From: Ilumatobacteraceae bacterium
GTDB taxonomy: Bacteria; Actinomycetota; Acidimicrobiia; Acidimicrobiales; Ilumatobacteraceae
DNA: 64,000 nucleotides
Reading direction: 5' to 3'
NCBI GenBank assembly: GCA_017859785.1
Contig: JAFMMJ010000001.1
Location: 9,618-73,617, forward strand
Shown here: positions 17,045 through 55,914 of the stretch, in pieces
Layout: each line of letters begins with the position of its first letter
How positions within the stretch are numbered: position 1 is the first letter of the stretch
The notes under the pieces: generated by a model
Seen by the model: the letters and a program-made list of their open reading frames with translations, nothing else
Told to the model about the DNA's origin: nothing
Database searches by the model: none
Translations under genes and position numbers: made by a program

Positions 17045-17203
17045 GTCTTCTCTCCTTGTGATCATTGTCGGTCGAGCGCTGCTCGGACCTGCGGGCGTCC
17101 CGCTCTGTTGTGAGGTCGGACCGACTCCCGTCGGTGCCGTTGTGCGCCCGCGGGGAGCGTTGTGCCTGAGGGCCGGTCTTCCCTGCCGCCGGACCCTGCC
17201 CGG

Positions 17204-17219
17204 ACACAAGATGTGGTGT
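17204..17219. promoter_or_regulatory. NrdR box 1
   Basis: ACACAAGATGTGGTGT fits the NrdR-box consensus acaCwAtATaTwGtgt. It lies about 160 nt upstream of the nrdJ start. Confidence 0.7.
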
Positions 17220-19410: not shown

Positions 19411-19471
19411 CGAACACATGATCCCCGATCGAACGAACACATGTTTGACTTCGCGATCGAACGCGCGTACG
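19411..19471. promoter_or_regulatory. three further SOS-box-like sites proximal to lexA
   Basis: CGAACacatGATCC (19411-19424), CGAACacatGTTTG (19434-19447) and TCGAACgcgcGTACG (19457-19471). The last one abuts ATG 19472. Confidence 0.55.
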
Positions 19472-30982: not shown

Positions 30983-31135
30983 AACGGCTGCCTCCTGTGT
31001 GGTGTTGGTGGGCTCGGGCCCGGGTGTGGTGCCGACCGGTTGATCGGTGTCGGCGAACCTATGAAGGGGGTGTGACAGCGGCCGGGGCCCCGTCACGGGT
31101 GAGTCGTTGGCTGGGAACGACATCAATGTAACTCA

Positions 31136-35311: not shown

Positions 35312-35389
35312 GGTGGGCGTAGCTCAGGTGGTTAGAGCGTCAGGTTGTGGCCCTGAAGGCCGGGGGTTCAAGTCCCCTCGCTCACCCCA
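35312..35389 (+). tRNA. tRNA-His (anticodon GTG)
   Basis: The cloverleaf can be drawn by hand. It has the extra G(-1) at 35312, acceptor GTGGGCG/CGCTCAC, anticodon loop TTGTGGC, T-loop GGTTCAAGT and an encoded CCA. Confidence 0.9.
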
Positions 35390-35443
35390 GGGCCCGGGCA
35401 GTTGGGCGGTGGTTGGCCTCCGCCTACACTGCCCGGGCTTCGA

Positions 35444-35518
35444 CCGCCTCTAGCTCAACGGCAGAGCAGTGGACTCTTAATCCATTGGTTCTGGGTTCGA
35501 ATCCCAGGGGGCGGACCA
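35444..35518 (+). tRNA. tRNA-Lys (anticodon CTT)
   Basis: Acceptor CCGCCTC/GGGGCGG, D-arm GCTCAACGGCAGAGC, anticodon loop CTCTTAA, T-arm CTGGGTTCGAATCCCAG and an encoded CCA. Confidence 0.9.
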
Positions 35519-38823: not shown

Positions 38824-38826
38824 GCC

Positions 38827-39591
38827 GTGCGGATCCTCGTCTGCGTGAAGCGGGTACCCGCGCCCGGTTCCAAGATCAACATCACCGCCGACGGCCAACG
38901 CGTCGACGATGCCAACCTCGGTCACACCACGAGCCCCCACGAGGAGTGCGCGGTGGAGGCCGCGAGTCAACTCATCGAGGAGCACGGCGGTGAGGCCGTC
39001 GTGCTCACCCTCGGCGGAGTCGAGGCCGAGGAACAACTCCGTTACGCGGTCAGCGTTGGCATGCACAGCGGAGTGCTCCTCGCCACCGACGGCGGCGAAT
39101 GGGATCCGCAGCGCACCGCCGCGGCGATCGCGAGCGCCATCACCAACCTCGAGGCGAGCGGCGGACCCTTCGATCTCGTGCTGTTCGGCAACGAGTCGGC
39201 CGATTCGAGCGGTTTCCAGGTCGGCATCCGGGTGGCCCACACCCTCGGACGCCCCATGGTGAACGGCGCCAAGGGCCTCCGCGTCGACGGCGGTACCGCC
39301 CACGTCGAGCGTGAGGCCGACGCCGGACGCGAGGCGTACGAGCTGCCGCTTCCGGCCGTGGTCGGCGTGAAGGAGGGCATCAACCTGCCTCGCTACCCGA
39401 CCATGAAGGGACGTCTCGCGTCGAAGAAGGCCGGTGTGGTCACCGTCGAGCCCGCCGGGGAAGCCGGTGGACTCGCCATGGTCACGTTGAAGCCACCGCC
39501 GGAGCGAACCAACGAGACCGTCATCCTCGGCAACGGCCCCGAGGCCGCCGCAGCGGTCGTCGACGTACTCGAAGAGATCGGAGTCCTGTGA
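38827..39591 (+). CDS. etfB: electron transfer flavoprotein, beta subunit
   Basis: MRILVCVKRVP... is the canonical EtfB N-terminus. 254 aa. Confidence 0.9.
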   Translation: MRILVCVKRVPAPGSKINITADGQRVDDANLGHTTSPHEECAVEAASQLIEEHGGEAVVLTLGGVEAEEQLRYAVSVGMHSGVLLATDGGEWDPQRTAAAIASAITNLEASGGPFDLVLFGNESADSSGFQVGIRVAHTLGRPMVNGAKGLRVDGGTAHVEREADAGREAYELPLPAVVGVKEGINLPRYPTMKGRLASKKAGVVTVEPAGEAGGLAMVTLKPPPERTNETVILGNGPEAAAAVVDVLEEIGVL

Positions 39592-40553
39592 TGGAAGGCA
39601 CCACGCTCGTCGTCATCGAACACGACCGAGGCGCACTGGCTGAGGCGTCCCTTGAGGCCTTGGCCGCCGCACGCGCTCTCGGCACCCGCGTCGAGGCGCT
39701 CACGATCGGCGCCGACGCCGACGGACTCACCGACACCCTCGCCGCCCATGGCGCCAGCACGCATCATCGCGCCCACCATGAGATGCTCACCGACTACGCC
39801 CCGGAGGCCTGGGGCGAGGTGGTCGCCGCGGCCGTGCGCTCGATGTCGCCGGCGGTGCTGATGGCTTGCGGGACCGACCGTGGCAACGAGGTGCTCGCCC
39901 AAGCCGCCGCCCGACTCGACCTCCCCTTCGCGGCGAACTGCACGGACCTCTCCCCCGGAGACACCCTCAACATGACCCGGCTGCGCTGGGGTGGTTCACT
40001 CCTCGAAGAGGCGACGCTCTCGGCGCCGATGTGGATCGTTTCGGTGGCCCATCACCTCCACGAGCCCTCCGAAGCGCCGACCGAGTGCTCCATCTCGGAC
40101 CTGCCGGTCGATCTCGACCCCTCACTCGCCCGCTCTCGGGTGACCGCCCGGGTCGAGCGCGAGGCCGGAGTCACCCTCTCGTCGGCCCCGGTGGTGGTCG
40201 GCGGCGGACGCGGAGTCGGCTCGCCCGAAGGTTTCGCTCCGCTCGCCGAACTCGCCGCCGAGCTCGGCGGGGTGGTCGGCTGCTCTCGAGCGGTCACCAA
40301 CAACGGCTGGCGAAGCCACACCGATCAGGTCGGCCAAACCGGCACGCGAATCGCGCCCGACGTGTACATCGCTTGCGGTATCAGCGGCGCGATCCAGCAC
40401 TGGGTGGGCGCCATGGCGTCGAAGAACATCATCGCCATCAACACCGACCCCCAGGCGAACATGGTCACCAAGGCCGGTCACGCCGTCATCGGCGACCTCC
40501 ACAAGGTGATCCCCGCGATCACCGAGGAGATCCGACGCCGCCGCGCCAGCTGA
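39588..40553 (+). CDS. etfA: electron transfer flavoprotein, alpha subunit
   Basis: The start overlaps the etfB stop. The C-terminal FAD-binding block is YIACGISGAIQHWVGM-like (YIACGISGAIQHWVGAMAS). Confidence 0.9.
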   Translation: MMEGTTLVVIEHDRGALAEASLEALAAARALGTRVEALTIGADADGLTDTLAAHGASTHHRAHHEMLTDYAPEAWGEVVAAAVRSMSPAVLMACGTDRGNEVLAQAAARLDLPFAANCTDLSPGDTLNMTRLRWGGSLLEEATLSAPMWIVSVAHHLHEPSEAPTECSISDLPVDLDPSLARSRVTARVEREAGVTLSSAPVVVGGGRGVGSPEGFAPLAELAAELGGVVGCSRAVTNNGWRSHTDQVGQTGTRIAPDVYIACGISGAIQHWVGAMASKNIIAINTDPQANMVTKAGHAVIGDLHKVIPAITEEIRRRRAS

Positions 40554-40566
40554 GCGGCGTCGAACG

Positions 40567-41457
40567 TCAGGCCAGCAGCTGCTCGTGCCAGAGGCGCGTG
40601 TCGGCCACCGAGTTGAAGGTGAACGAGTGGATCGCCTCAATGTCGAGCTCACCGGCGCACGCCGCCAACTCGACCACCATGTCGGTCGGGTCGAACCCGC
40701 CCGGTGACATGAGGGCCATCACCGTCGAACGGTTCTTCGACAGATAACGGAGCGAGGCTCCGATACCGAGGCGCGTGCCGACGGTCATCAGCCGGGTGCG
40801 GTCGACCACCCCGGGGAGCCCAAGCCGGATCGGCAGATGCATCCCGGCGGCGCGCTCGGCGCGCAACCAGTCGACGATTTTCTCGGTGTCGAAGCACATC
40901 TGAGTGGAGCACCACCCGTGCACCCCGGCCTCGTCGAGCACCGCCTGCTTGGCGAGGAGCTGCTCAGAGGCGACCGCGGCGTCGAACATGGCGTGACCAT
41001 CGGGGTACCCGGTGACGCCGATGGCCTTCATGCCGTGGTCGTGAGTCACGAGATCGCGCAGGAACGCCAGCGCCCCCTCATAAGGGCCGGCGGGCTCGGG
41101 CGCGTCGCCGGCGACGATGAACACCTCATCGACCCCTGACGACTTCAACCAGGAGGCGAGTTCCGCGGTGTGATCGGGACCCTCCACGAGTCGAGTAGCG
41201 ATATGCGGAACCGGCCGATGCCCGAGCGCCACGAGCCGGTCGGTGATCTCCCGAGTGGCCGGGATGCCCTTCGCCGGCGAGCAGGTCACCGAGACGTTCG
41301 CGCCAGGCGGCAGGTCATCGATGGCCTGCTCGACCGACTTCATCGGAATCAGCTCGTAATGGAGGCCGGTGACGAGTTCGCGCACGGCGGGGTCGTCGAC
41401 GCGGACAGCGGAGTCGCGACCGCGGCCAGGGATGAGTCGTTTGAGGGTGGTGAGCAC
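40567..41457 (-). CDS. metF: methylenetetrahydrofolate reductase family protein
   Basis: 296 aa with MTHFR TIM-barrel blocks (YELIPMKS..., VFIVAGD, CFD). GTG start with GAGAGGAG RBS. It is the last gene of the corrinoid methyltransferase operon. Confidence 0.8.
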   Translation of the reverse strand: MLTTLKRLIPGRGRDSAVRVDDPAVRELVTGLHYELIPMKSVEQAIDDLPPGANVSVTCSPAKGIPATREITDRLVALGHRPVPHIATRLVEGPDHTAELASWLKSSGVDEVFIVAGDAPEPAGPYEGALAFLRDLVTHDHGMKAIGVTGYPDGHAMFDAAVASEQLLAKQAVLDEAGVHGWCSTQMCFDTEKIVDWLRAERAAGMHLPIRLGLPGVVDRTRLMTVGTRLGIGASLRYLSKNRSTVMALMSPGGFDPTDMVVELAACAGELDIEAIHSFTFNSVADTRLWHEQLLA

Positions 41458-41469
41458 GTTCGCTCCTCT

Positions 41470-43035
41470 CTAGGCGAACTCGTCGGGGATCTCACCCCGG
41501 CGTCGCTCGACATATTCGGTCAGTTCCTCGGCGATCGCCTCGTCGAGCGGGGGCGGCTCATAGGAGGCGAGTTGCTCCTTCCAGATGCGGTTCGCGCGCT
41601 GGGCGGCATCGAGCCCTCCCTCCTCGGTCCACTGCTCGAAACTCGAGTTGTCCGAGGTCGTCGAGCGGTAGAAGGCCGACTCGAAGTTGGCGAGGGTGTG
41701 CGCCGTGCCGAGGAAGTGGTTGCCCGGCTCGTTATCGCGGATCGCGTCGACCGCCTGGCCGTTCTCCGAGAGGTCAAGGCCTTGCACGAGCTTGTGCATC
41801 GCGCCGAGTTGGTCGCAGTCGAGGATGAACTTCTCGTAGCCGATGGCGAGCCCACCCTCAAGCCAGCCCGCCGCGTGGAGCACGAAGTTGACTCCGCCAA
41901 GCACGGTCGGCATGAGTGTCGCCATCGACTCGTAGGCGGCCTGAGCATCGGGCAACTTAGAAGCGCACAGCGAGCCACCCGACCGGAACGGCACATTGAG
42001 TCGCCGGGCGAGGGCGGCAACCGTGTACAGCACGATCGCTGGCTCCGGAGTGCCGAACGTCGGTGCGCCGGTCTGCATCGACATCGACGAGGCGAACGAT
42101 CCGAACACGACCGGCGAGCCCGGCCGCACCAACTGCGCGAAGGTCATTCCAACGAGCGCCTCGGCGAGGGTCTGAGCCGCCACACCCGCCGGGGTGACGG
42201 GTGCCATCGCGCCGGAGAGAATGAACGGGGTGAAGATCGACGCCTGGTTGTTCTCGGCGTAGACCTCGGCGGCCTCGAGCATCGTCGCGTCCCACACCAG
42301 CGGCGAGGAGGCGTTGATCAGGCTGGTCATCACCGTTCGGTCGGCCAGATCGCCACCGAAGGCGATCCGGGCCATCTCCACGGAATCGGCGGCGCGCGAA
42401 CCAGCGGTCACCGAACCCATGAACGGCTTGTCGCTGTAGCGGAGATGCGCGTGCACCATGTCGAGGTGCCGCTTCGACACCGGCACATCGACCGGCTCGC
42501 ACACCGTGCCACCAGAGTGGTGGAGATACGGCGACATGTAGGAGAGGCGGACGAAGTTCTCGAAGTCGGCCAGCGTCGCGTAGCGGCGGCCGGCGTCGAG
42601 GTCGTGCACGAACGGTGAGCCGTAGTTCGGCGCGAACACCGTCGCGTCGCCGCCGATCTGCACGTTGCGTTCCGGGTTGCGGCCGTGCTGGGTGTAGATC
42701 GCTGGGGCAGTCGCGGTGACGATCGAGCGGCACAAACCCCTCGGGAATCGCACTCGCGTGCCATCGACATCAGCTCCAGCCGCTCGGAACCGCTCGATGG
42801 CGGATGGGTAGTCGCGGATCTCCACACCCACCTCGGCGAGGATGGTCTCGGCGTTGTGCTCGAGGAGCTCGAGGCCCTCAGACGACACGATGTCGAGCGG
42901 CGTGAGCGAGCGGGTGATGAACGCGTCCGCTCCCGTCGAAGCGGCAGCGCGGGCGGCTTTGCGGGCCGATCGCCCTCCCCCGCGGCGACCCGCTCGCTCG
43001 GAGCCGGTGTCAGTTGTGGTGTCGGCATCGGTCAT
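41470..43035 (-). CDS. MttB-superfamily (trimethylamine methyltransferase-like) methyltransferase, non-pyrrolysine type; quaternary-amine:corrinoid methyltransferase candidate
   Basis: 521-aa uninterrupted ORF with no internal TAG and MttB-family blocks throughout. The ATG overlaps the upstream stop (ATGA). Confidence 0.85.
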   Translation of the reverse strand: MTDADTTTDTGSERAGRRGGGRSARKAARAAASTGADAFITRSLTPLDIVSSEGLELLEHNAETILAEVGVEIRDYPSAIERFRAAGADVDGTRVRFPRGLCRSIVTATAPAIYTQHGRNPERNVQIGGDATVFAPNYGSPFVHDLDAGRRYATLADFENFVRLSYMSPYLHHSGGTVCEPVDVPVSKRHLDMVHAHLRYSDKPFMGSVTAGSRAADSVEMARIAFGGDLADRTVMTSLINASSPLVWDATMLEAAEVYAENNQASIFTPFILSGAMAPVTPAGVAAQTLAEALVGMTFAQLVRPGSPVVFGSFASSMSMQTGAPTFGTPEPAIVLYTVAALARRLNVPFRSGGSLCASKLPDAQAAYESMATLMPTVLGGVNFVLHAAGWLEGGLAIGYEKFILDCDQLGAMHKLVQGLDLSENGQAVDAIRDNEPGNHFLGTAHTLANFESAFYRSTTSDNSSFEQWTEEGGLDAAQRANRIWKEQLASYEPPPLDEAIAEELTEYVERRRGEIPDEFA

Positions 43036-45044
43036 GCCGGAACTCCTCTCGCTCTGCGTCTCGGTCGCCCCGATCCCGAAGCGGGAGCGGAGGCGGATGG
43101 TTTGGGAAGGTTGATCGCCGTCGCGAGGTGCGGGGTGGGATCGGTGCTGTGCGGCACCCCCATCGCGGCGACGAAGAGCTCTTGGAAGCGCGGCTCCGTG
43201 GCCGTCTCGATCTTCACGATGTCGTTGGCGGCGTCTTCAAGTTCGGCGCGCATCGTCCGCGACAGGAGCGCTTGAACGGCTCCGGTGCCGGCGGCGTTAC
43301 CAACAGAACGCACCTTCTCAACCGGGCAGTCGGGAACCAGACCGAGGACCAACGCCCGAAGCGGGTCGATATGGGCGCCGAAGGCACCGGCCAAGCGGAC
43401 ATCGGTGATCTCCGGCCGGCCGGCGTGCTCAACGAGGAGGTCGATGCCAGCACGCAGCGCCGCCTTGGCGAGTTGAATCGCTCGGACGTCGTTTTGAGTG
43501 ATCGCGATCCGGCTGCCTCCCACCTCGGAGAGGACGTAACTGAAGGTCCGACCGTCAGCCACCACCCGACTCGTGCGCTCGGCGAGCGATCCGTCGATCA
43601 CCCCATTGGAATCGATAACCCCGGCGAGGTACATCTCGGCGATCGCGTCGATCACACCTGATCCGCAGATGCCGCTCGGCCCGGATGGACCCGTCGCCGC
43701 TGAGAACCCCTCCTCATCGGACCAGAGATCGACACCGATCACCCGGAAACGCGGCTCGAGCGTGTCGCGGTCGATGCGCACCGTCTCGATCGACCCGTGC
43801 GTCGCCCGCTGGCCGCTGCTCAACTGGGCCCCCTCGAAGGCCGGGCCGGTCGGGCTGGAGGCAGCGAACACCCGCTCGCGATCCCCGAGGACGATCTCAG
43901 CGTTGGTGCCAATGTCGACGAGCAGTTGCGTGGTCTCCGAGCGGTGCGGACCCTCGGCGAGCACCGCCGCGGCGGTGTCGGCGCCGACGTGGCCAGCAAT
44001 GCACGGAGCCACGTAACAGCGGGCGTACGGCAGAGTGAGATCGAGGTCGCCGGCACGGGTGACGAGCGCGCGGTTCGTGGTGAGGGTGAAGGGGGCCTGG
44101 CCGAGAGGTGTCGGATCGAGGCCGAGCACGAGATGGTGCATGATCGGATTGCCAACGAGCACCACCTCGAGCACGTACTCGCGGAAACTCTCGATCTGGT
44201 CGACCAGTTCCCCGATCAGGCCGTCGACGGCGGTGCGGACGGCCGCCGTGAGTTCCGCCTCGCCTCCCGGATTCATCATCACGTACGACACGCGGCTCAT
44301 GAGGTCCTCGCCGAACCGGATCTGCGGGTTCATGCGCCCCGCGCTGGCCAGCACCTCGCCGGTGGAGAGATCGCACAGGTGCCCGGCGATGGTGGTCGAC
44401 CCGATGTCGATCGCCACGCCGAGCAAGGCGTCGACGAAGCCCGGCCACACGGCGACCACCTGGTCGCTCTCGTCGACGACGACCGTCACCGCTCCCGAGC
44501 CGCGATCGATCGCCGGCTGGAGCATGGGCAGGGCGCGCAACGGCACATGAGGGGCGGTTCGACCGTGCTGGTCTCGGACCGAGAGCCGGACGAGATCGGC
44601 CAGGCTCCGGTCGTCGCCGAGTTCGGGTTGGGGAACCTCGACGAACCACGCGGTGAACGACGGGTCGACGGTGAACGCCGGCAGGTCGAGGTCCTTTCGG
44701 ACCACCTGACGGTGCACCTGGCTCTCCGGTGGAACCTCGATCACCACGTCGCCACATACCGTGGCGGCGCAGCCGAGTCGGCGCCCCGCGACGAGCGGTC
44801 GCGCTCCTCGGTAGTCGGTCTCGATGGATGCCCGCGGACCGAGCGCGTCGTTAGCGACCTCCATCCCCCACTTCGCGTGGACACCGGTCGACACCTCGAC
44901 CTGGCAGCGCCCACAGATACCGCGACCACCGCAGACCGTGTCGAGATCGACGCCGAGCGAACGGGCGGCATCGAGCACGGACGTTCCCTCCTCGACCGAG
45001 CCGTTCAGGCCCGACGGGGTGAAGACGATCCGATGCTCGCTCAT
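43032..45044 (-). CDS. corrinoid reductive activase (RamA-like: [2Fe-2S] ferredoxin domain + ASKHA/DUF4445 ATPase)
   Basis: N-terminal plant-type ferredoxin motif (CGGRGICGRCQV) followed by a large ASKHA-fold domain. Confidence 0.85.
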   Translation of the reverse strand: MSEHRIVFTPSGLNGSVEEGTSVLDAARSLGVDLDTVCGGRGICGRCQVEVSTGVHAKWGMEVANDALGPRASIETDYRGARPLVAGRRLGCAATVCGDVVIEVPPESQVHRQVVRKDLDLPAFTVDPSFTAWFVEVPQPELGDDRSLADLVRLSVRDQHGRTAPHVPLRALPMLQPAIDRGSGAVTVVVDESDQVVAVWPGFVDALLGVAIDIGSTTIAGHLCDLSTGEVLASAGRMNPQIRFGEDLMSRVSYVMMNPGGEAELTAAVRTAVDGLIGELVDQIESFREYVLEVVLVGNPIMHHLVLGLDPTPLGQAPFTLTTNRALVTRAGDLDLTLPYARCYVAPCIAGHVGADTAAAVLAEGPHRSETTQLLVDIGTNAEIVLGDRERVFAASSPTGPAFEGAQLSSGQRATHGSIETVRIDRDTLEPRFRVIGVDLWSDEEGFSAATGPSGPSGICGSGVIDAIAEMYLAGVIDSNGVIDGSLAERTSRVVADGRTFSYVLSEVGGSRIAITQNDVRAIQLAKAALRAGIDLLVEHAGRPEITDVRLAGAFGAHIDPLRALVLGLVPDCPVEKVRSVGNAAGTGAVQALLSRTMRAELEDAANDIVKIETATEPRFQELFVAAMGVPHSTDPTPHLATAINLPKPSASAPASGSGRPRRRARGVPA

Positions 45045-45056
45045 GTCAGGAATCGC

Positions 45057-45956
45057 TCACTCGGAGCGACGCCTCCTCCGACCCTCTCGGCTACCGCGAC
45101 CACCCTCGGCGGAAGGGTCGCGGTTCTCTCGGATCCACGCGGCGCAGTCACGGTCGTTGCCCATGAGCACGTCGGCGGCCATGACGGCTGCTTTCACCTC
45201 GGCGTGCATGGGGTTCATGATCGCCGAGGTCATCCCAGACGAGATCGCCATCGACAAGAAGGTGCCGGTGACGACATGACGATTCGGGAGACCGAAGCTC
45301 ACATTCGAAGCGCCGCAGGTGGTGTTGACCCCGAGTTCCTCGCGGAGCCGGCGCACCAGCGCGAACGCCTGGCGACCGGCCGTTCCCATCGCGCCGATCG
45401 GCATGACGAGCGGGTCGACGACGACATCCGCGGCGGGGATCCCGTGATCGGCGGCCCGCTCAACGATCCGCTTGGCGACGGCGAAACGCACATTGGGATC
45501 CTCCGAGATGCCGGTCTCATCGTTCGAGATCGCCACCACGGCAGCGCCATGACGAGCGACGAGTGGAAGCACCCGCTCCATGACCTCGTCCTCGCCGGTG
45601 ACCGAGTTGACCAATGCCTTGCCCTGGTAGACGCCGAGGCCGGCTTCGAGCGCCTCGATGATGGAGGAGTCGATGGAGAGCGGGACGTCGGTGATCGACT
45701 GAACGAGTTGCACCGCCCGCGCGAGCAGCGCCGGCTCATCGGCGAGCGGAATACCCGCGTTCACATCGAGCATGTGCGCGCCGGCGGCCACCTGGGCGAG
45801 AGCGTCGGCCTCGACGCGGGAGAAATCGCCGTTCTTCATCTCCTCGGCGAGGAGTTTGCGTCCGGTCGGGTTGATCCGCTCACCGATCATCACAAACGGT
45901 CGCTCGAATCCGATCACGACCTCTTTGGTCGCGGAGCTGATCAGGGTGTCGGTCAT
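45057..45956 (-). CDS. methyltetrahydrofolate:corrinoid methyltransferase (pterin-binding domain, MtgA/MeTr-like)
   Basis: Pterin-binding barrel blocks (IGERINPTGRK, LDVNAG, LVNSV, CGASNVSFGLP). Confidence 0.85.
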   Translation of the reverse strand: MTDTLISSATKEVVIGFERPFVMIGERINPTGRKLLAEEMKNGDFSRVEADALAQVAAGAHMLDVNAGIPLADEPALLARAVQLVQSITDVPLSIDSSIIEALEAGLGVYQGKALVNSVTGEDEVMERVLPLVARHGAAVVAISNDETGISEDPNVRFAVAKRIVERAADHGIPAADVVVDPLVMPIGAMGTAGRQAFALVRRLREELGVNTTCGASNVSFGLPNRHVVTGTFLSMAISSGMTSAIMNPMHAEVKAAVMAADVLMGNDRDCAAWIRENRDPSAEGGRGSREGRRRRRSE

Positions 45957-45973
45957 GGGTTCTCCTCGGAGGA

Positions 45974-46360
45974 TCAGTCGGGTGTGTCGTTCTCGTCGTC
46001 GAGTTCCTCGAGGGCGAGGAGTTCGGACTGTGGGACCTCGTCGTCGACGATGTCGGCTTCGAATCCGCCGACATAGGCGAGTCGTCCGAGATGCTCGCGG
46101 GGGTATCTCGCCTCGAGGCGGGCGGCCTCGGCCTCAGCAGCCTCGGCTGGATCGCCGTCGATGGGCACCGACACGCGACGCCACTGAGCGACGTCCTCGT
46201 CGGCGGTCACGATGCCGGCCTTGCGCTTCGCACGATCGATCGCGCGCTGGAACTTGGCTGACAGCGCCACTTGATGGCGCTCCCGCCCGCGCTGTCCATT
46301 CACTTGAGCAGGGATGTCCCGCCACAAGATGGTGACCACCTCTGCCCCACCTCGCGGCAT
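45974..46360 (-). CDS. small conserved hypothetical protein embedded in the corrinoid operon
   Basis: 128 aa (..VTILWRDIPAQVNGQ..). It is tightly packed between DUF1638 and the methyl-THF methyltransferase. The acidic C-terminus is low-complexity. Function unknown. Confidence 0.6.
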   Translation of the reverse strand: MPRGGAEVVTILWRDIPAQVNGQRGRERHQVALSAKFQRAIDRAKRKAGIVTADEDVAQWRRVSVPIDGDPAEAAEAEAARLEARYPREHLGRLAYVGGFEADIVDDEVPQSELLALEELDDENDTPD

Positions 46361-46361
46361 C

Positions 46362-46963
46362 TCAGACCCCCGCCCCGCTCAACCCGACGGCGACGGCCTC
46401 GCGAAGGTGCTCACGACCGGTGGCGATGATCTCCAGCGGAAGGGCCAAGCGGCGGGCGGCCGCCTCAGCCGCCTCTCGCACCTCTGGCTCGTCACCTTGG
46501 GTGAGCAACACAACGCGCGTGTACGCGGCGAAGTACATGTCGCGCAGTTCCGGGTGTCGGTCGAGACCGAGGCCGGACCACACGAGGGCGTCGAAGTGCC
46601 TGGCGAGGAAATCGGTCAAGTAGAAGGTGCCGAGCTCCTCTGAGTGAAGGCGTTCGAACTCGTCGACACCGCTCAAGAAGGCGTAGCAGTGAGCGCCCGG
46701 AAGGCGCCGAACATCCCGCGGGGTCGAAGCGATCCAGGCGTCGAGCAGGCCGCCGGTGCCGCAGTCGGCGTAACCGAGGAGGACGCTCCGGTCGAGTGGT
46801 TCATCGCTGAGTCGCTCCTCGATCGCGGGAACGATCCCATCGGGTCGGTTGTGCAACGGCGCGGGCAGGTAGTCGACCTCGACGGATTCGGCGAGTTCGT
46901 CGACCTCCAGCACGGCCCGCAGCTCACGGGCGAGAGCACCGCAGGCGAGCACGAGCGGACGGG

Positions 46964-46967
<4 letters not shown>
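46362..46967 (-). CDS. DUF1638-domain protein
   Basis: 201 aa. The start overlaps the corrinoid-protein stop (ATGA). Pattern LACGALARE...YLPAPLHNRP...GYADCGTGG is typical of DUF1638. Confidence 0.7.
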
Positions 46968-47689
<722 letters not shown>

Positions 47690-47906: not shown

Positions 47907-48665
47907 TCAGGGCTGGAGACTGCCCGCGAGGCGCTTCGACACGCGCGCAGCGGTGCGCACCACGGCACGGGTGATCGCGTCACGTCGGTCCGGATCGGGG
48001 AACCGATAGGCCGGGCCGTGAACATGGATCGCGGCGATCACCGATCCCGCCGGATTGAAGATCGGCGCCGCCACCGAGTTGATGCCCTCGGCCATCTCCT
48101 CCATCGTCCAGGCGAAACCGTCGCGGCGGACCGACTCGAGGCGCCGAATGATCGCAACCGGGTCGGTGACGGAGCGCTCACACCAGGGTTCGAACGGGTC
48201 GGCGAGAGCCGCCGCCTGCTCCTCGTCAGAGGAGAACGCCAGCAGAACCAACCCTGAGGAGACCACGTGAGCGTCGACGGTTTCTCCGGTCCAGTCGCGC
48301 AACTGCACCTCTTGGCCAGCGTTCACTTGATCGAGGTAGTAGACCCCGCGGCCCTCCAAAACACCGATCCCCGCGTCCTCTTCGAGCAGGTCCACGAGGT
48401 CCTGGAGATGCGGACGGCTGATCGAGACGATGTTGCGACCCGGTGATGCGGCGGCGCTCAGCTCGATGAGGGTCTCCCCCAGTCCGTAGGAGCTGGAGTT
48501 CTCGCTCTGCTCGACCGCGCCGAGATCGACGAGGGTCGACAGCAGGCGCGCCACCGTGCTCTTCGGGAGGTCGGTCCGCTCGGCGATCTCGGACACGCCA
48601 GCCGGTCCGGTGGACAGGCTGCGCAGCACCGAGAAGGCGCGGTTGACTGACTGGACTCCTGACAT
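47907..48665 (-). CDS. IclR-family transcriptional regulator
   Basis: Trimmed to ATG 48665 (GGGAGG RBS). N-terminal HTH (VQSVNRAFSVLRSLS...GVSEIAERTDLPKSTVARLL) and a C-terminal IclR effector domain. Confidence 0.88.
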   Translation of the reverse strand: MSGVQSVNRAFSVLRSLSTGPAGVSEIAERTDLPKSTVARLLSTLVDLGAVEQSENSSSYGLGETLIELSAAASPGRNIVSISRPHLQDLVDLLEEDAGIGVLEGRGVYYLDQVNAGQEVQLRDWTGETVDAHVVSSGLVLLAFSSDEEQAAALADPFEPWCERSVTDPVAIIRRLESVRRDGFAWTMEEMAEGINSVAAPIFNPAGSVIAAIHVHGPAYRFPDPDRRDAITRAVVRTAARVSKRLAGSLQP

Positions 48666-48684
48666 GTTCCTCCCTGATCTCCCA

Positions 48685-48705
48685 CTGTTCCACAATGTGG
48701 AACAG
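48685..48705. promoter_or_regulatory. perfect 21-bp palindrome upstream of iclR (candidate IclR operator)
   Basis: CTGTTCCAC-AAT-GTGGAACAG lies 20 nt upstream of the iclR ATG. Confidence 0.6.
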
Positions 48706-48739: not shown

Positions 48740-49621
48740 TTAGAACGCGCCGAGCATCCTCGCGGCGGCGAGGGTGTTCTCGAGCAGGCAGCCGATCGTC
48801 ATCGGACCGGTCCCACCGGGCATCGGCGTGATCGCGCCTGCGACCGCTTGCACTCGATCGAAATCGACATCGCCGACGATGCCGTCAGCCGTGCGCGACA
48901 CGCCGACATCGAGCACCGCGGCTCCTGGTCGGACATGGTCGGGACCGATCATGTGCGCCTGGCCGGCGGCCGCGACGATGATGTCGGCCTCGCGACACAC
49001 CTCGATCAGATCGGATGTGCGCGAGTGGGCAAGGGTGACCGTCGCATCGCAGCCCCGTCGACCGAGCAGCAGCACCTGAGGGAGCCCGACCAAGGTCGAC
49101 CGCCCAACGACGACCGCTCGACGACCGGAGGTCTCGATTCCGTAACGCTCGATCAGGCGCATGACACCGAGCGGCGTGCAGGGCACATGCCCGGGCAAGT
49201 CACGAACGAGGCGACCGAGTGAGCGCTCGGTGAGCCCGTCGACATCCTTCTCCGGTGGCAACAGTGCGAGGACCGGCTCCGGGTCAAGATGCGCTGGCAG
49301 AGGGAGCTGCACGAGGATCCCGTGCACCGTCGGGTCAGCCACGAGGGCGGCCACCTGCTCCTCCACCTCAGCCTGGGTGGCCGACTCCGGAAGTTCGACC
49401 CCACGCGAGACGAGACCGGCCTCCTCGGCCTTGCGGTGCTTCATCCGCACATAGATCTGGCTCGGCTTGTCGGCGCCGACGAGCACCGTCGCGAGGCACA
49501 CCTCAGGCGAGCCCGCCGCCTCAATCTCAGACCGGAGGCGCGACACCGTCTCATCGCGCAGACGGTTGCCGTCGAGGAGGATCGCCCCTCCGGCTGTGCG
49601 CTCGACGCTGTCGGAGGTCAC
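48740..49621 (-). CDS. folD: bifunctional methylene-THF dehydrogenase / methenyl-THF cyclohydrolase
   Basis: FolD blocks (LATVLVGADKPSQIYVRMK, GILVQLPLP, VVVGRSTLVGLP, PMPGGTGPMT). The start overlaps the fhs stop. Confidence 0.92.
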   Translation of the reverse strand: MTSDSVERTAGGAILLDGNRLRDETVSRLRSEIEAAGSPEVCLATVLVGADKPSQIYVRMKHRKAEEAGLVSRGVELPESATQAEVEEQVAALVADPTVHGILVQLPLPAHLDPEPVLALLPPEKDVDGLTERSLGRLVRDLPGHVPCTPLGVMRLIERYGIETSGRRAVVVGRSTLVGLPQVLLLGRRGCDATVTLAHSRTSDLIEVCREADIIVAAAGQAHMIGPDHVRPGAAVLDVGVSRTADGIVGDVDFDRVQAVAGAITPMPGGTGPMTIGCLLENTLAAARMLGAF

Positions 49622-51315
49622 GAAAGGCCCACGATCTGGCCGTCGTCATCGATGTCGATGCGGGCGGCCGCGGGCGAGGAGGCGAGACCGGGCATAGTGC
49701 TCATGTCGCCGCAGATCGGGTAGACGAAACCAGCACCGACGCTCGCGCGAGCCTCGCGCACCGTCAGGGTGTGTCCGGTGGGCGCGCCCTTCAGGCTCGG
49801 ATCACCGGAGATCGACAGGTGCGTCTTGGCGATGCACACCGGCAGTCCTCCGAAGCCGTTGTCCTCGTAGTTCTGCAATTGGCGGCTGGCGGCTGCGGTG
49901 TAGTCGACACGCGCCGCGCCATAGATCGTGGTGGCGACCTTCTCGATCTTGGTCTTCAGCGGATCGGAGTCCTCATAGAGGAAGCCGAAGTCGCTCGGCT
50001 CCTCACACGCCTCGATGACCGCCTCGGCCAACTCGACCGCGCCCGCTCCCCCGTCGGCGAAGTGGGTGCACACAGCGACGCGCGCGCCGAGCGACTCGCC
50101 GAAACGTCGGATGGCCTCGTGCTCGGAGGGATGGTCGGTCGGGAAGGCGTTGATGGCGATCACCGGGGTGACACCGTGAGCCTTCACGTTCTCGACCTGC
50201 TTGCGTAGGTTCTCCGCTCCAGCCATCACGTCGTCCGGGTTCTCGGCGAGCAGGTCCTCGGGGAGGGCCTTGCCGGCGACGATGCGGTACTTGCCGGAGT
50301 GGGCCTTAAGCGCGCGGACCGTCGCCACGAGCACCGCGGCATCGGGGGTGAGTCCTGAGGCGCGGCACTTGATGTTGAAGAACCGCTCGGCCCCCATATC
50401 GGCGCCGAAGCCAGCCTCGGTGATGAGGTAATCGCCGCCGCGGATACCGATGAGGTCGCCGACGACGGAGGAGTTGCCGTGGGCGATGTTGCCGAACGGA
50501 CCGGCGTGGACGATCACCGGGGTGTTCTCGATCGTCTGCAACAGGTTGGGAGCCAAGGCGTCGCGCATGATCACCGACATCGAGCCGGCACCGTTCAAGT
50601 CCTCAGCGGTCACCGGACGGTTGTCGTTCGTGTAGCCGACCACGATGCGACCGAGACGCGCGCGGAGATCCTCAGCGGAGGTGGCGAGCGCGAGGATCGC
50701 CATGACCTCCGAAGCCGCGGTGATGTCGAAGCCGGTCTGCCGGGTCACCCCGTCCATTCGGCCGCCGAGCCCGATGACGATGTTGCGCAACGCGCGATCG
50801 TTCACGTCGAGCACGCGACGCCAGGTGATGTTGTTGAGGTCGAGTCCGAGTTCGTTGCCGTGATGGAGGTGGTTGTCGACCATCGCCGACAGCAGGTTGT
50901 GGGCAGCGGTTACCGCATGGAAGTCGCCGGTGAGGTGCAAGTTGAGCAGTTCCATCGGGATGACCTGGCTGTAGCCACCTCCGGCCGCTCCACCCTTGAT
51001 GCCGAAGGTCGGCCCCATCGAGGGTTGCCGAAGCGAAAGGACCGCGTTCTTGCCGACATGAGACATCGCCTGGCCGAGACCGACCGAGGTGGTCGTCTTG
51101 CCCTCACCGAGCGGGGTCGGGGTGATGGCGGTGACGACGACGTACTTCGCCTTCGGCCGATCGGCCAGTTCGTCGATCGCGTCGAGGCTGATCTTGGCCA
51201 ACTCGGTGCCGTAGGGCCGGAGCAGGTGCTCTCCGATCCCCATCTTCGCCGCGACCTCGGGCATCGGCTTCGGAACGGCGGCTCGGGCGATCTCAAGATC
51301 GGACGGAAAACTCAT
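49618..51315 (-). CDS. fhs: formate-tetrahydrofolate ligase
   Basis: FTHFS signatures (TPTPLGEGKTTT, GGAAGGGYSQV, HAGPFGNIAHGNSS). 565 aa. Confidence 0.95.
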   Translation of the reverse strand: MSFPSDLEIARAAVPKPMPEVAAKMGIGEHLLRPYGTELAKISLDAIDELADRPKAKYVVVTAITPTPLGEGKTTTSVGLGQAMSHVGKNAVLSLRQPSMGPTFGIKGGAAGGGYSQVIPMELLNLHLTGDFHAVTAAHNLLSAMVDNHLHHGNELGLDLNNITWRRVLDVNDRALRNIVIGLGGRMDGVTRQTGFDITAASEVMAILALATSAEDLRARLGRIVVGYTNDNRPVTAEDLNGAGSMSVIMRDALAPNLLQTIENTPVIVHAGPFGNIAHGNSSVVGDLIGIRGGDYLITEAGFGADMGAERFFNIKCRASGLTPDAAVLVATVRALKAHSGKYRIVAGKALPEDLLAENPDDVMAGAENLRKQVENVKAHGVTPVIAINAFPTDHPSEHEAIRRFGESLGARVAVCTHFADGGAGAVELAEAVIEACEEPSDFGFLYEDSDPLKTKIEKVATTIYGAARVDYTAAASRQLQNYEDNGFGGLPVCIAKTHLSISGDPSLKGAPTGHTLTVREARASVGAGFVYPICGDMSTMPGLASSPAAARIDIDDDGQIVGLS

Positions 51316-51412
51316 CGTTGTTCACCCCTGATTCGGTGGTTTGTCGGCAGAATGAGCGGGCTGTTGGCCCGCCGACGCGTGGCCGGCGCGGATTGTCGCA
51401 CAGGTCACACTC

Positions 51413-51447
51413 GTTCCACAATACGGATTCATTCCAAGATGTGGAAC
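51413..51447. promoter_or_regulatory. two adjacent imperfect copies of the 17-bp operator in the fhs / formate dehydrogenase divergent region
   Basis: GTTCCAC-AAT-ACGGATT (51413-51429) and ATTCCAA-GAT-GTGGAAC (51431-51447). The outer arms are perfect matches to the iclR palindrome. Confidence 0.55.
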
Positions 51448-51478
51448 GATACACCGCTTCTCAACTAACCTAAACGTC

Positions 51479-53395
51479 ATGCCACGGCACCGCCACCAGC
51501 CTCTCGACCGCCTCACCACCCCACTCGTTCGGGAGAACGGCGCGCTCCGCCCCGCCACCTGGGACGAAGCCCTCGACCGGGCCGCCGAGGGATTCCGCCG
51601 CGCCGGTGGCGGTCAGTCAGTCGGTGTGTTCTCCTGCTCGAAGTCGACAAACGAGATGAACTTCATCGCGCAGAAGCTCGCCCGAGTCGCACTCGGTACG
51701 AACAACATCGACTCCTGCAACCGAACTTGACACGCTCCCTCGGTGGTCGGTCTGGCCGCCACATTCGGAGCGGGAGGAGGCACCTCCTCCTACGCGGAGG
51801 CCGAGGCCGCCGACGTCATCATCATGTGGGGCTCGAACGCCCGCAACGCGCACCCGATCTTCTTCCACCACGTGCTCACCGCCGTGAACAACGGCGCGCG
51901 CCTGTTCGTGGTCGACCCTCGACGCAGCGAGACGGCGCGCTTCGCTGACCGCTGGCTCGGACTCGAGGTCGGCACCGACATCGCGCTCTCCAACACGATC
52001 GCCCGCGAGATCATCCACGCCGGTCTCGCCCACACCGACTTCATTGAGCGGGCCACCAGTGGATTCGAGGAGTACGCCGCGTCGGTCGAGGAGTGGACCC
52101 TCGAGCGCGGTGAGTCGGTCACCGGCGTGCCAGCCGAAGCCATCCGAGAACTCGCCCACGCCTACGCCGGCGCGAAGGCCGCCCAGTTGTGCTGGACCCT
52201 CGGCATCACCGAGCACCACAACGGTGTCGACAACGTCCTCTCACTGTGCAACCTCGCCCTCCTCACCGGCCAGGTCGGGCGCTACGGCGCCGGACTCACC
52301 CCATTGCGCGGACAGAACAACGTCCAGGGAGGCGGCGACATGGGCGCGCTTCCCAACAAGTTGCCCGGCTTCCAAGACGTCACCGACGACGAGGCTCGAG
52401 CGAAGTTCGACGCGCGTTGGTCAGCGACCGTCCCACCGGAGAACGGCTGGCACCTCACGCAGATGTTCGACGCGATGGAGCGCGGCGACCTCACCTCGCT
52501 ACTCGTCATCGGCGAGAACCCGGCGCAGAGCGAGGCCGACGTCTCGCGGGCGATCGACCTGCTCTCCTCCCGCGATCACCTGGTCGTTCTCGACATCCAC
52601 ATGACCGGCACCGCCGAACTCGCCGACGTCGTGTTGCCGGGGAGCGCCTCATGGTGCGAATCGGATGGCACGGTCACCAACTCCGAACGTCGAGTGCAAC
52701 GCGTCCGCAAGGCCATCAACCCACCCGGCGAGGCCCGCGACGACATCGACATCCTGCTCGACCTCGCCGCCCGTCTCGGCCACGACTGGAACTACCGCGA
52801 TCACGAGGAAATCTGGGACGAGTTGCGGTCGCTGTCACCCATGCACGCCGGCATGCCGTGGTGGCGTCTCGAGGAACTCGGCGGCATTCAGTGGCCCTGC
52901 TATTCAGAAGACACGCTGGAGCCGCCCTTCCTCCACGGTCGCCTGTGGGCCGAGGACCCCGCCGAGCGCGGTCGACCCGCCCCGTTCGCCGTCGTCATCG
53001 ACGAGCCACCCGTCGAGGCCGTCGACGAGGAGTTCCCGCTCCGCCTCACCACCGGTCGACGTCTCGACTCGTACAACACCGGCGTGCAATCGGGCGGGTT
53101 CTCCTCGCCAAATCGCGCGGGTGAGACCGTCGACGTCTCACCTGGTGACGCTGACCGCCTCGGAGTCGCCAATGGCGAGATCGTCCGCGTGAGCTCGCGA
53201 CGCGGCGCGGTCGAGGCGCCGATCAGGATCGACCGGGGACTCCGCGACGGGCTGGTATTCATGACCTTCCACTTCCCCGATGAGGTCGATGTGAACCAGT
53301 TGACGATCGACGCCGTCGACCCCCGTTCGGGAACGGCGGAGTTCAAGGCTGCCGCTGTCCGTATCGACCGGATCACCCCGGCGGCGACAGGCTGA
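51479..53395 (+). CDS. formate dehydrogenase catalytic subunit, molybdopterin (bis-MGD) module only. The in-frame TGA at 51728-51730 is read as selenocysteine.
   Basis: ORFs 51479..51730 and 51743..53395 share one frame. The junction reads NNIDSCNRT-U-HAPSVVGLAATFGAGG, matching the CxR(V/L)-U/C-H-xPSVxGL active-site block of FdhF/FdhA. A SECIS-like hairpin follows. The start ATG has no obvious RBS. Confidence 0.8.
51731..51771 (+). promoter_or_regulatory. bacterial SECIS-like mRNA hairpin
   Basis: The upper stem GGTGGTC (51742-51748) / GGCCGCC (51754-51760) has the loop GGTCT and starts 11 nt after the TGA, the same spacing as in E. coli fdhF. The lower stem is GCTCC (51734-51738) / GGAGC (51767-51771). 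Confidence 0.65.
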
Positions 53396-53401
53396 GCAGA
53401 C

Positions 53402-55045
53402 ATGGAGGCAATCAAGCGGACGACCCCGGCATCCGATGCCGAGCGCGAGGCGATCGAGAGCGTGCTCGGGCCGTCCGACGACCGTCTCGGTCGCGACGCT
53501 GTCGCCGGTCATGTCGTCCGTGGGCAGCGGCACCTGCTGCTGCCTTGTCTCCACGCCCTCAATGACCGGATCGGCTGGATCAGCTCTCCAGCGATCGATC
53601 ACCTCGCCACGCGACTCGGCGCCTCCCCCGCCGAGATCCACGCGGTAGCCAGCTTCTACGGGCTCTTCTCTCTCAGCCCCCGTGAGCCCGTCCAGCGCCA
53701 CGTCTGCATCGACCTCGCCTGCCGGGCGGCCGGCGGGCCGACTGAACACAGCGTCGACCACGAAGCGCACCCCGCGCCCTGCCTCGGACTCTGCGACCGC
53801 GCCCCCGCCGCCATCACCATCGGCGGCCACGACCCCGAACCGGACCCCGCGTCCGCCGCCGTCGATCGCGCCGAGGACGACGTCCTGCTGCGGCGAGTCG
53901 GCGCGGGCGACCCGGTCGACCTCGACGCCTACCTCGCCGACGGCGGGTTCTCAGCACTCGAGCGCGCCCGAGATCTCGGCCCCGAGGGAATCATCAGCGC
54001 CGTCGAGGCCTCTGGACTCACCGGTCGGGGCGGAGCCGGATTCCCGACGGCCCGCAAATGGGACGCGGTCCGCACCCAGCCCGTCACCCCCCACCACCTG
54101 ATCTGCAACGCCGACGAGTCCGAACCGGGCACCTTCAAGGATCGGACCCTGATCGAGAACGACCCGTACGCCCTGATCGAGTCGATGGCGATCGCCTCGC
54201 TCGCCATCGGCTGCGAACTCGGGCGGGTATACCTGCGCGGCGAGTATCTCCGCGCCCACCTGACCCTGTCGACAGCCATCGAGCGCTGCCGCTCCGCCGG
54301 TTTGCTCGGAGCGTTGGCGGGCTTCGATATCGAGATCATCCGCGGCGCGGGCGCCTACATCTGCGGGGAGGAGACGGCGATCTTCAACTCCATCGAGGGA
54401 TACCGCGGCGAACCACGGAACAAGCCGCCGTTCCCGTTCGAGTCGGGGCTGTTCGGTGAGCCGACCGCGGTGAACAACGTCGAGACGTTGATGAACGTGC
54501 CCTCCATCATCGCCGAGGGCCGCCAAGCAGACCGCCGGCTCTTCTGCTTGTCGGGCGCCGTGCGCCGCCCCGGCGTCATCGAAGCGCCCATCGGCATCAC
54601 CCTCGGAGCGCTGATCGAGCGCGCGGGAGGTCTCCGTGAGGGCTCGGAGCTTCGCGCCGTCATGCTCGGCGGAGCCGCCGGCGGCTTCGCCGGTCCGGCC
54701 GACCTCGATCTTCCCCTCGATGACGCCCGACTCCGCGAGGTCGGGCTCACCCTCGGCTCCGGCGTCGTGATGGTCCACGATCAGCACGTCGACCTCGTCG
54801 ATCAATTGCGACGGATCGCCGCGTTCTTCCGCGACGAGTCCTGCGGGCAATGCGTCCCCTGCCGCGTCGGAACCGTCAGGCAGGAAGAGGCCATCGAGCG
54901 ACTCGCCTCCGGAACGGGCGAGGCCGACCTCTCACTGCTGCGCGATATCGCTGGCGCCATGCGCGACGCGAGCATCTGCGGTCTTGGTCAGACGGCGGCC
55001 AACGCGATCCAGTCGGCCGTCGTGCGGCTCGGGGTGCTGACATGA
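53402..55045 (+). CDS. NAD(H)-binding diaphorase subunit: fused NuoE-like [2Fe-2S] and NuoF-like FMN/[4Fe-4S] domains (FdsG-FdsB type)
   Basis: NuoE cysteines (VCIDLAC ... CLGLCDRAP). NuoF motifs GLTGRGGAGFPTARKW, ICNADESEPGTFKDR and ESCGQCVPCRVG. Confidence 0.88.
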   Translation: MEAIKRTTPASDAEREAIESVLGPSDDRLGRDAVAGHVVRGQRHLLLPCLHALNDRIGWISSPAIDHLATRLGASPAEIHAVASFYGLFSLSPREPVQRHVCIDLACRAAGGPTEHSVDHEAHPAPCLGLCDRAPAAITIGGHDPEPDPASAAVDRAEDDVLLRRVGAGDPVDLDAYLADGGFSALERARDLGPEGIISAVEASGLTGRGGAGFPTARKWDAVRTQPVTPHHLICNADESEPGTFKDRTLIENDPYALIESMAIASLAIGCELGRVYLRGEYLRAHLTLSTAIERCRSAGLLGALAGFDIEIIRGAGAYICGEETAIFNSIEGYRGEPRNKPPFPFESGLFGEPTAVNNVETLMNVPSIIAEGRQADRRLFCLSGAVRRPGVIEAPIGITLGALIERAGGLREGSELRAVMLGGAAGGFAGPADLDLPLDDARLREVGLTLGSGVVMVHDQHVDLVDQLRRIAAFFRDESCGQCVPCRVGTVRQEEAIERLASGTGEADLSLLRDIAGAMRDASICGLGQTAANAIQSAVVRLGVLT

Positions 55046-55914
55046 CAACGATCGACGGCACCGCTTCGGACACAGCGACGGTCGAGGCGATCATCGACGG
55101 GGTAACCGTTCGTGTGGCCGAAGGCACGACGATCCTCGACGCCTGCGGCGGTCGGGGATGCGGCATTCCCACCCTGTGCTACGGCGAGACGATCACCCCA
55201 CGCAACGCCTGCCGCGTCTGCATGGTGGAGGTGGAGGGCTCGCGCACCCTGGTTCCCTCCTGCTCGCGTCCGGTGACCGAGGGCATGGTCGTCACGACGC
55301 GTTCCGAGCGGATCGACCACTCGAGGCGGATGGTGCTCGAGTTCCTCGGCTCCTCGGTCGACCTCTCGCTCACCGACCATGTCGAAGAGTGGAACACCGA
55401 GTACGGCGCCGACCCGACGCGATACGGCTCAGAGGCCGCTCGAGTGGACGAGCCGGTTCGCATCGACAACGACCTCTACATCCGCGACTACTCCAAGTGC
55501 ATCCTGTGCTACCAGTGCGTCGACGCTTGCGGAGAGCAGTGGCAGAACAGTTTCGTGATCGACATCGCCGGACGGGGCTTCGACGCTCGGGTGTCGACCG
55601 AGCACGACGTCTCACTCCCTGATTCCGGATGTGTCTACTGCGGCAACTGCATCCAGGTCTGCCCGACCGGAGCGCTGATGTTCACCTCGGAGTACACCAT
55701 GCGCCAAGCGGGCACCTGGGACGAGTCGCGTCAGACCCAGGTCGACACGGTCTGCGGATATTGCGGGGTGGGCTGCAACCTCACCCTCCACGTGCAAGAC
55801 GACTCGATCGTGAAGGTGACCTCACCAGCCGACAGCGGCATCACGAGCGGCAACCTCTGCGTGAAGGGACGCTTCGGCTTCCAACACGCGCAGAACCGTC
55901 CCTCCGCCGACTGA
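55042..55914 (+). CDS. formate dehydrogenase alpha-subunit N-terminal Fe-S module, encoded as a separate gene ([2Fe-2S], two ferredoxin-type [4Fe-4S], and the molybdopterin-oxidoreductase Fe4S4 domain)
   Basis: Trimmed to ATG 55042 (ATGA overlap with the upstream stop). Cysteine motifs seen: LCYGE..ACRVCMV..SC, CILCYQCVDAC, CVYCGNCIQVCP and CGYCGVGCNL...CVKGRFGF. The protein ends exactly where the 51479 ORF's homology begins. Confidence 0.85.
   Translation: MTTIDGTASDTATVEAIIDGVTVRVAEGTTILDACGGRGCGIPTLCYGETITPRNACRVCMVEVEGSRTLVPSCSRPVTEGMVVTTRSERIDHSRRMVLEFLGSSVDLSLTDHVEEWNTEYGADPTRYGSEAARVDEPVRIDNDLYIRDYSKCILCYQCVDACGEQWQNSFVIDIAGRGFDARVSTEHDVSLPDSGCVYCGNCIQVCPTGALMFTSEYTMRQAGTWDESRQTQVDTVCGYCGVGCNLTLHVQDDSIVKVTSPADSGITSGNLCVKGRFGFQHAQNRPSAD

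Follow-up and report, generated by a model that had tools for sequence, protein, structure and literature searches.

A 64-kb stretch of DNA from an Ilumatobacteraceae actinobacterium (the window, to whose positions all coordinates refer) carries two consecutive open reading frames (ORFs), 51479-51730 and 51743-53395 on the forward strand, parted by a TGA at 51728-51730. This raises the question of whether they are the fragments of a broken gene, or one gene in which the TGA is translated. An initial annotation, made from the sequence alone, proposed a formate dehydrogenase (FDH) with selenocysteine (Sec) at this codon, and all of the sequence-level predictions of that proposal were borne out in the present study. 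Very probably, 51479-53395 is the gene for the catalytic subunit of a molybdenum- or tungsten-dependent (Mo/W) FDH that is cytoplasmic and NAD-linked, and the UGA of its codon 84 is translated as Sec. The position of the codon, its conservation, the pairing of Sec with Cys among orthologues and the selection acting on an adjacent RNA hairpin are direct observations.

The two ORFs are in the same frame, as originally claimed, and translation through the TGA gives 638 codons in which this is the only internal stop. The peptide across the junction is ...TNNIDSCNRT*HAPSVVGLAATFG. Pairwise alignment with E. coli FdhH (about 37% overall identity) pairs Sec140, His141 and Arg333 of that enzyme with window residues 84 (the TGA), 85 and 277, and so upholds the earlier placement of the TGA at Sec140-His141. 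In E. coli fdhF the TGA is likewise codon 140, and residue 84 is also aligned with the catalytic Cys of the structure 7QV7, consistent with the UGA (51728-51730, forward strand) specifying a Sec that serves as the Mo/W ligand. A close likeness to fdhF just after the TGA had also been noted at the nucleotide level and is real, with 21 of the first 27 and 27 of 41 nucleotides identical, counted from the TGA. The E. coli sequence quoted for that comparison is correct, being matched at 100% in 5413 E. coli records annotated as Sec-containing fdhF.

If the TGA simply terminated translation, the locus would be a pseudogene or two independent fragments, with 83-aa and 550-aa products that are non-functional or separate. 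Gene callers make just this split, as the initial annotation foresaw, and public metagenome-assembled genomes (MAGs) carry the 83-aa and 550-aa gene calls; moreover, Sec machinery was not seen in the sequence examined. Relatives of the locus argue strongly for the opposite. One genome per GTDB species was scanned and the best 80 of the 593 loci found were used. The aligned codon is TGA, never TAA or TAG, in all 70 Acidimicrobiia-type loci, which come mostly from Ilumatobacteraceae MAGs and range from 71 to 96% protein identity, and it is TGC or TGT (Cys) in all ten loci from Pseudonocardiaceae (Amycolatopsis, Kutzneria). None of the 70 TGA loci has a frameshift or a further stop, and in nearly every locus with a long enough contig the tblastn alignment crosses the TGA unbroken, from query residues 1-11 to about 632, so that both halves must lie in one frame and be under protein-level constraint. 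The break falls precisely on the codon of the metal ligand. A downstream start at GTG 51743, which ORF finders adopt, is GTC in six relatives, and re-initiation there is therefore not conserved. The best 120 matches in a protein collection (81-99% identity) are 526-568 aa long, all but one of them 545-568, and cover 81-86% of the query, which indicates that they all start downstream of the TGA. Together with an RNA hairpin that is under selection (see below), these data make a pseudogene or a pair of fragments extremely improbable. Two further explanations were discarded. Sequencing error is excluded because the exact 550-aa protein recurs in 116 blocks of public assemblies, and a genome-wide reassignment of UGA because TGA terminates the first two genes of this same operon. 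A scan of the window for other coding ORFs interrupted by TGA gave ordinary gene boundaries only. The codons next to the UGA (51725-51733) are themselves constrained: the preceding Thr is ACT in 65 of the 70 loci, a rare choice in these G+C-rich genomes, and the following His is CAC in all of them.

If the UGA is recoded, a selenocysteine insertion sequence (SECIS) of the bacterial kind should follow it within the coding sequence, and a good candidate lies at 51733-51772 on the forward strand. Its upper stem pairs 51742-51748 with 51754-51760 (seven base pairs, two of them G.U) around the apical loop GGUCU (51749-51753) and begins 11 nt after the UGA. The lower stem pairs 51733-51738 with 51767-51772, giving six base pairs in the window, of which five are conserved across the family. 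This is the hairpin of the initial annotation, with a 7-bp upper stem, the same loop and spacing, and a 5-bp lower stem, and its register is favoured by the comparative data. RNAfold gives the 48-nt element a free energy of -23.2 kcal/mol (z = -2.43), with three of 200 shuffled sequences folding as well; the minimum-energy fold of the window sequence alone has a slightly shifted upper register, with a bulged U and a CUG triloop, that is peculiar to this sequence. An alignment of 71 Sec-type sequences, 63 of them distinct, is more informative. None of the 63 distinct sequences departs from standard pairing at the six core base pairs of the upper stem, and every one has the loop GGTCT; the lower stem is 92.7% paired and includes one exchange of A-U for U-A. 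At pair 21-33, 57 sequences have G-C and six have C-G, no unpaired intermediate being found; each of the two bases occupies the third position of its codon, where the change is synonymous (GTG to GTC, GCC to GCG). Over the 71 sequences, 90% of cells are paired, compared with 23-61% in slid registers, and the covariation score of the hairpin was reached by none of 500 shuffles. Apart from this compensated pair there is no synonymous variation in codons +5 to +9 (Val Val Gly Leu Ala), with flanking four-fold codons varying by 1.5-2.1 bits. All 70 sequences use GGT for the glycine at +7, the G+C content of the genome being about 66%. A Thr-to-Ala change, confined to the window and its two nearest relatives, turns a U-A pair into U.G and so keeps the stem. 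The Cys orthologues no longer have the hairpin: they keep only 32 of 60 upper-stem pairs and have a loop of GGGCT or GGCCT. In a neighbour-joining tree, the C-G variant of pair 21-33 appears on four deep branches, suggesting at least one and probably two independent switches between G-C and C-G.

Several observations weigh against a Sec-encoding UGA at this locus and concern either the hairpin or the machinery that would read it. A covariance model had been suggested as a check on the region around 51725-51780. Rfam SECIS_3 (RF01989), the sole Rfam family in the region, matches 51725-51779 over its full length (model positions 1-59, with a shared UGA-CAC...GGUCUGGCC core) at E = 0.0024 in a 301-nt search, but its score of 24.4 bits is far under the gathering score of 63. 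Nothing was found by Rfam at the gathering threshold, and by that criterion the element is therefore no member of SECIS_3. A bulged U is important for SelB binding in the E. coli fdhF SECIS, and the window hairpin does not have one. The change of G-C to C-G, which provides compensation within the upper stem, may reflect only one or two evolutionary events. As to the machinery, ARAGORN detected no tRNA-Sec in the window or in 61 related loci, no sel genes turned up among 40 window ORFs scanned with NCBIfam and Pfam, and E. coli SelA, SelB and SelD had no tblastn match in the window or in 84 related loci; of these three queries only that for SelD was compared with the PDB, where it proved near-exact. 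Neither sel genes nor tRNA-Sec were found in the 8-10 kb or so past either end of the window, where proteins encoded near the ends were looked up. The presence of this machinery in the genome therefore rests on literature at the level of the family. Published tables give SelD, SelA and SelB as present in both Ilumatobacter coccineus and I. nonamiensis, and count 15 known selenoproteins in the former and 10 in the latter (Peng et al. 2016, PMC5029168, Tables S1, S2). In another order of Acidimicrobiia, selA, selB, selC and selD are reported from all complete genomes (2026 preprint, bioRxiv 10.64898/2026.04.03.716425). Selection on a SelB-type hairpin in 70 genomes would also be hard to explain if SelB were missing from them.

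A different possibility is that the UGA is recoded by way of the SECIS and a SelB-like factor but that Cys, or some other residue, is inserted by a tRNA-Sec-like tRNA charged with Cys. The delivered amino acid is not readable from sequence alone, Cys works at this position in the Pseudonocardiaceae orthologue, and Mukai and colleagues have reportedly described such Cys-charged tRNAs in some bacteria. On the other hand, SelA and SelD, both listed for Ilumatobacter species along with 10-15 selenoproteins, are needed only for the synthesis of Sec, and a plain TGC codon would give Cys without any recoding machinery. Insertion of Cys is thus considered very unlikely, and translation as Sec is retained as the preferred reading. 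In a midpoint-rooted neighbour-joining tree the Cys loci (L065-L068, L070, L073-L075, L077 and L078) are nested among deep Sec branches, which would suggest a replacement of Sec by Cys, perhaps after transfer of the genes into Pseudonocardiaceae. Five loci (L022, L036, L038, L041 and L080) come from MAG records titled Acidobacteria, Ferrithrix thermotolerans DSM 19514, Bifidobacterium breve and Armatimonadota, yet carry an Ilumatobacteraceae-type locus of 71-76% identity. Their neighbouring genes are alike in four of the five (L080 shows the catalytic gene only), and the taxonomic labels or the binning of these records are probably wrong.

The substrate of the enzyme can be approached through its family. 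Pfam recognizes Molybdopterin and Molydop_binding domains in the catalytic gene, with no Molybdop_Fe4S4 (the proximal 4Fe-4S domain), and the best NCBIfam model is TIGR01591 (formate dehydrogenase alpha), at 635.2 bits over profile positions 51-672 of 672. It could be argued that the protein is a selenoprotein of a different kind, a Mo/W oxidoreductase of the bis-pyranopterin guanine dinucleotide (bis-PGD) class that acts on another substrate, given that the score is just below the TIGR01591 cut-off (666.25 bits), that nitrate-reductase models match at lower scores and that some homologues have been named 'YjgC' by JGI. The shortfall, however, is accounted for by the first 50 profile positions, which are missing from the subunit. 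The FDH-specific Sec/Cys-His pair and the catalytic arginine of the RGQ motif are both present alongside the two Pfam domains, as in FdhF/FdsA-type enzymes, and the U-H...RGQ motif corresponds to class I in the scheme of PMC8808070. The closest solved structures are all formate dehydrogenases or CO2 reductases, namely FdhF of the T. kivui hydrogen-dependent CO2 reductase (HDCR), archaeal FdhA, M. extorquens Fdh1A, E. coli FdhH and R. capsulatus FdsA. In addition, 38 of the 80 related loci have, next to the gene for FDH, one for formate-tetrahydrofolate ligase (FTHFS), an enzyme that makes formate. A function other than formate oxidation is accordingly judged improbable to a high degree, and by all of the sequence criteria tested the predicted protein is a Sec-containing member of the FDH-alpha family. 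The subunit starts at the equivalent of residue 58-60 or so of FdhF-type chains and of residue 307 of FdsA. Its two departures from the FdhF/FdsA model, the lack of an Fe4S4 domain in the same chain and the score beneath the cut-off, both arise because the N-terminal iron-sulfur (Fe-S) domain is encoded on another chain.

Where, then, is the missing part? The initial annotation was silent on the absence of the N-terminal Fe-S domains, whose gene is the second one downstream. The catalytic gene is followed by a gene for a 547-aa diaphorase subunit (53402-55045, forward strand), a fusion of a NuoE-like part (2Fe-2S) and a NuoF-like part (flavin mononucleotide (FMN), NAD(H) and 4Fe-4S), with Pfam domains 2Fe-2S_thioredx, Complex1_51K, SLBB and NADH_4Fe-4S and a match to TIGR01959 (nuoF_fam) at E = 3e-117. 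The stop codon of this gene is overlapped (ATGA) by the ATG start of the next, at 55042-55914 on the forward strand, which encodes a 290-aa Fe-S subunit and is called as a gene of that length in public MAGs. From its sequence, Pfam matches and alignment to FdsA, this subunit has a 2Fe-2S domain like that of the NuoG N-terminus, two 4Fe-4S domains and, at its C-terminus, the Molybdop_Fe4S4 domain, and so supplies the N-terminal third that the alpha subunit lacks. It aligns with residues 21-305 of R. capsulatus FdsA, and the catalytic subunit aligns with residues 307-931. In terms of alignment, the two predicted proteins together are exactly one FdsA, split at residues 306/307. The module set of an FdsABG-type enzyme (NuoF-like FMN/NAD, NuoE-like 2Fe-2S, NuoG-like Fe-S N-terminus and catalytic modules) is complete within the three-gene block, but the subunit layout of that type, in which alpha is one chain of about 950 aa and FdsB and FdsG are proteins of their own, is not found.

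This arrangement is no peculiarity of the window. The order catalytic, NuoE-NuoF and Fe-S (51479-55914) recurs in every locus of sufficient length, whether of the Sec or the Cys form, and the NuoE-NuoF gene always comes after the catalytic gene. On the evidence of these gene orders the permuted arrangement is conserved across Acidimicrobiia (Sec) and Pseudonocardiaceae (Cys). When 1.84 billion representative proteins were searched with the Fe-S module, its free-standing matches, about 264-321 aa long, extended down to roughly 41-59% identity, and fused proteins of 770-900 aa began to appear at about 43% identity and below. This marks the split form as a derived clade within the fused enzymes. 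The locus may then represent an uncharacterised subtype of NAD-linked FDH in which an FdsA-type alpha subunit is circularly permuted at the level of the operon and its proximal 4Fe-4S cluster is supplied in trans by another polypeptide, an interpretation judged slightly more likely than not. No description of a split alpha architecture was found in the literature searched, the search not being exhaustive, and we know of no characterised Mo/W-bis-PGD enzyme in which the domain of the proximal cluster is on a separate chain. In one sub-clade (L006, L033, L036-L039, L049 and L051) about 2 kb of unrelated genes lie between the catalytic and NuoE-NuoF genes. The insert of L037 (7960-9946) has two ORFs on the opposite strand, one of 368 aa that resembles a zinc-type alcohol dehydrogenase by eye and another of 295 aa; given these opposite-strand genes, the three FDH genes of that locus cannot form one simple operon.

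Comparison with known enzymes brings out what is shared and what is distinctive. E. coli FdhH has the UGA at the aligned catalytic codon and the same conserved histidine and arginine, and the fdhF SECIS likewise begins its stem 11 nt past the UGA, with a 5' arm of 7 nt followed by GGUC in the loop. The window hairpin differs in the two G.U pairs of its upper stem, in having no bulged U and in a 5-nt loop closed by C-G. FdhH also retains the N-terminal 4Fe-4S domain that the window protein does not have, and passes its electrons to hydrogenase 3, whereas the partners encoded in the window are NuoE-, NuoF- and NuoG-like. These partners resemble those of FdsABG (R. capsulatus, 6TG9/6TGA; Cupriavidus necator) and of Fdh1AB from Methylorubrum extorquens (7VW6, 7E5Z), with which the locus shares an identical set of domains. 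In those enzymes, however, alpha is a single chain of about 950-990 aa and the metal ligand is Cys, whereas in the window alpha is predicted to consist of two chains, whose genes stand in reverse order on either side of the flavoprotein gene; NuoE and NuoF form one fused protein, and Sec is the predicted ligand. Neither an FdsC/FdhD nor an FdsD gene was found within the three-gene block. The top matches to the catalytic module are FdhF of the T. kivui HDCR (7QV7; E = 9e-148) and archaeal FdhA (7BKB, 9T1S), spanning E = 1e-139 to 1e-148. The chain of 9T1S has X, a non-standard residue that is presumably Sec, at the position of the ligand. Unlike the window protein, all of these chains keep the proximal 4Fe-4S domain, the query beginning at their residue 58-59, and they have other electron-transfer partners. 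A catalytic unit on two polypeptides does have a parallel among Mo/W-bis-PGD enzymes in formylmethanofuran dehydrogenase (FwdB/FwdD), some examples of which contain Sec, but there the split takes off the C-terminal Molydop_binding domain, and in the window it takes off the N-terminal 4Fe-4S domain.

Taken together with these homologies, the following scheme can be proposed for the Sec-containing FDH. By analogy with E. coli fdhF, a ribosome arriving at the UGA would find the hairpin 11 nt downstream offering its GGUCU loop to SelB-GTP-Sec-tRNA(Sec), and SelB would deliver Sec in place of termination. From the alignments, Sec84 would ligate the Mo or W of the bis-PGD cofactor, with His85 and Arg277 completing the formate site. 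Domain homology to FdsABG suggests that electrons would pass to the proximal 4Fe-4S cluster on the 290-aa Fe-S subunit, then through its other clusters to the NuoE/NuoF flavoprotein and finally to NAD+. Gene context suggests that the enzyme oxidises formate released by FTHFS, which is the likely source of formate, and that the methyl groups concerned may be routed through an MttB-family corrinoid methyltransferase system, tetrahydrofolate (THF), FolD and FTHFS.

FDH alpha is the most widespread bacterial selenoprotein, recorded in 822 organisms (Peng et al., PMC5029168), and Ilumatobacter is a listed user of Sec, so the selenoprotein itself will not surprise the specialist. The practical value of recognizing it lies in mending a systematic mis-annotation. 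For a widely sampled species of Ilumatobacteraceae, public MAGs carry the gene mis-called as 83 aa plus 550 aa, and so do hundreds of relatives; as a consequence the capacity for formate oxidation and the dependence on selenium are under-reported for an abundant lineage of aquatic and soil actinobacteria. Less expected is that the alpha subunit is split and its parts reordered in a conserved fashion, an architecture that may be a new variant. If the three polypeptides assemble as proposed, they would provide a natural Mo/W-bis-PGD enzyme with its proximal Fe-S domain as a separate chain, as well as a set of Sec and Cys orthologues in which the ligands could be compared in an oxygen-exposed, NAD-linked enzyme.

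The genes that surround the FDH block give some idea of its metabolic setting. Divergent from it, on the reverse strand, are the genes for FTHFS (49618-51315; Pfam FTHFS, E = 6e-252) and, in the same transcription unit, FolD, a methylene-THF dehydrogenase/cyclohydrolase (48740-49621; Pfam THF_DHG_CYH and THF_DHG_CYH_C). A gene for an IclR-family regulator lies at 47907-48695. The divergent intergenic region between the FTHFS and FDH genes holds a perfect 10-nt inverted repeat (51411-51449; TCGTTCCACA-N19-TGTGGAACGA) about 30 nt upstream of the FDH start. This is a candidate operator; of the relatives, only the closest two share the repeat, and L045 has a site that resembles it. Upstream of the FTHFS, FolD and IclR genes, 36286-47689 is occupied by a cluster for methyl-group catabolism that includes a GcvT fusion like sarcosine/dimethylglycine oxidase (845 aa), the beta and alpha subunits of an electron transfer flavoprotein, an MttB-family methyltransferase (521 aa, uninterrupted and with no in-frame TAG), a RACo/RamA-like corrinoid activase, a methyl-THF:corrinoid methyltransferase and an MtgC-like corrinoid protein. 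It looks like a pathway of the glycine-betaine demethylation type, feeding a route through THF, FolD, FTHFS and FDH. Housekeeping genes lie further away in the window, at 14195-17209, 19418-20113, 29933-31126 and 35313-35518, and specify a B12-dependent ribonucleotide reductase, LexA, RecA, and tRNA-His with tRNA-Lys.

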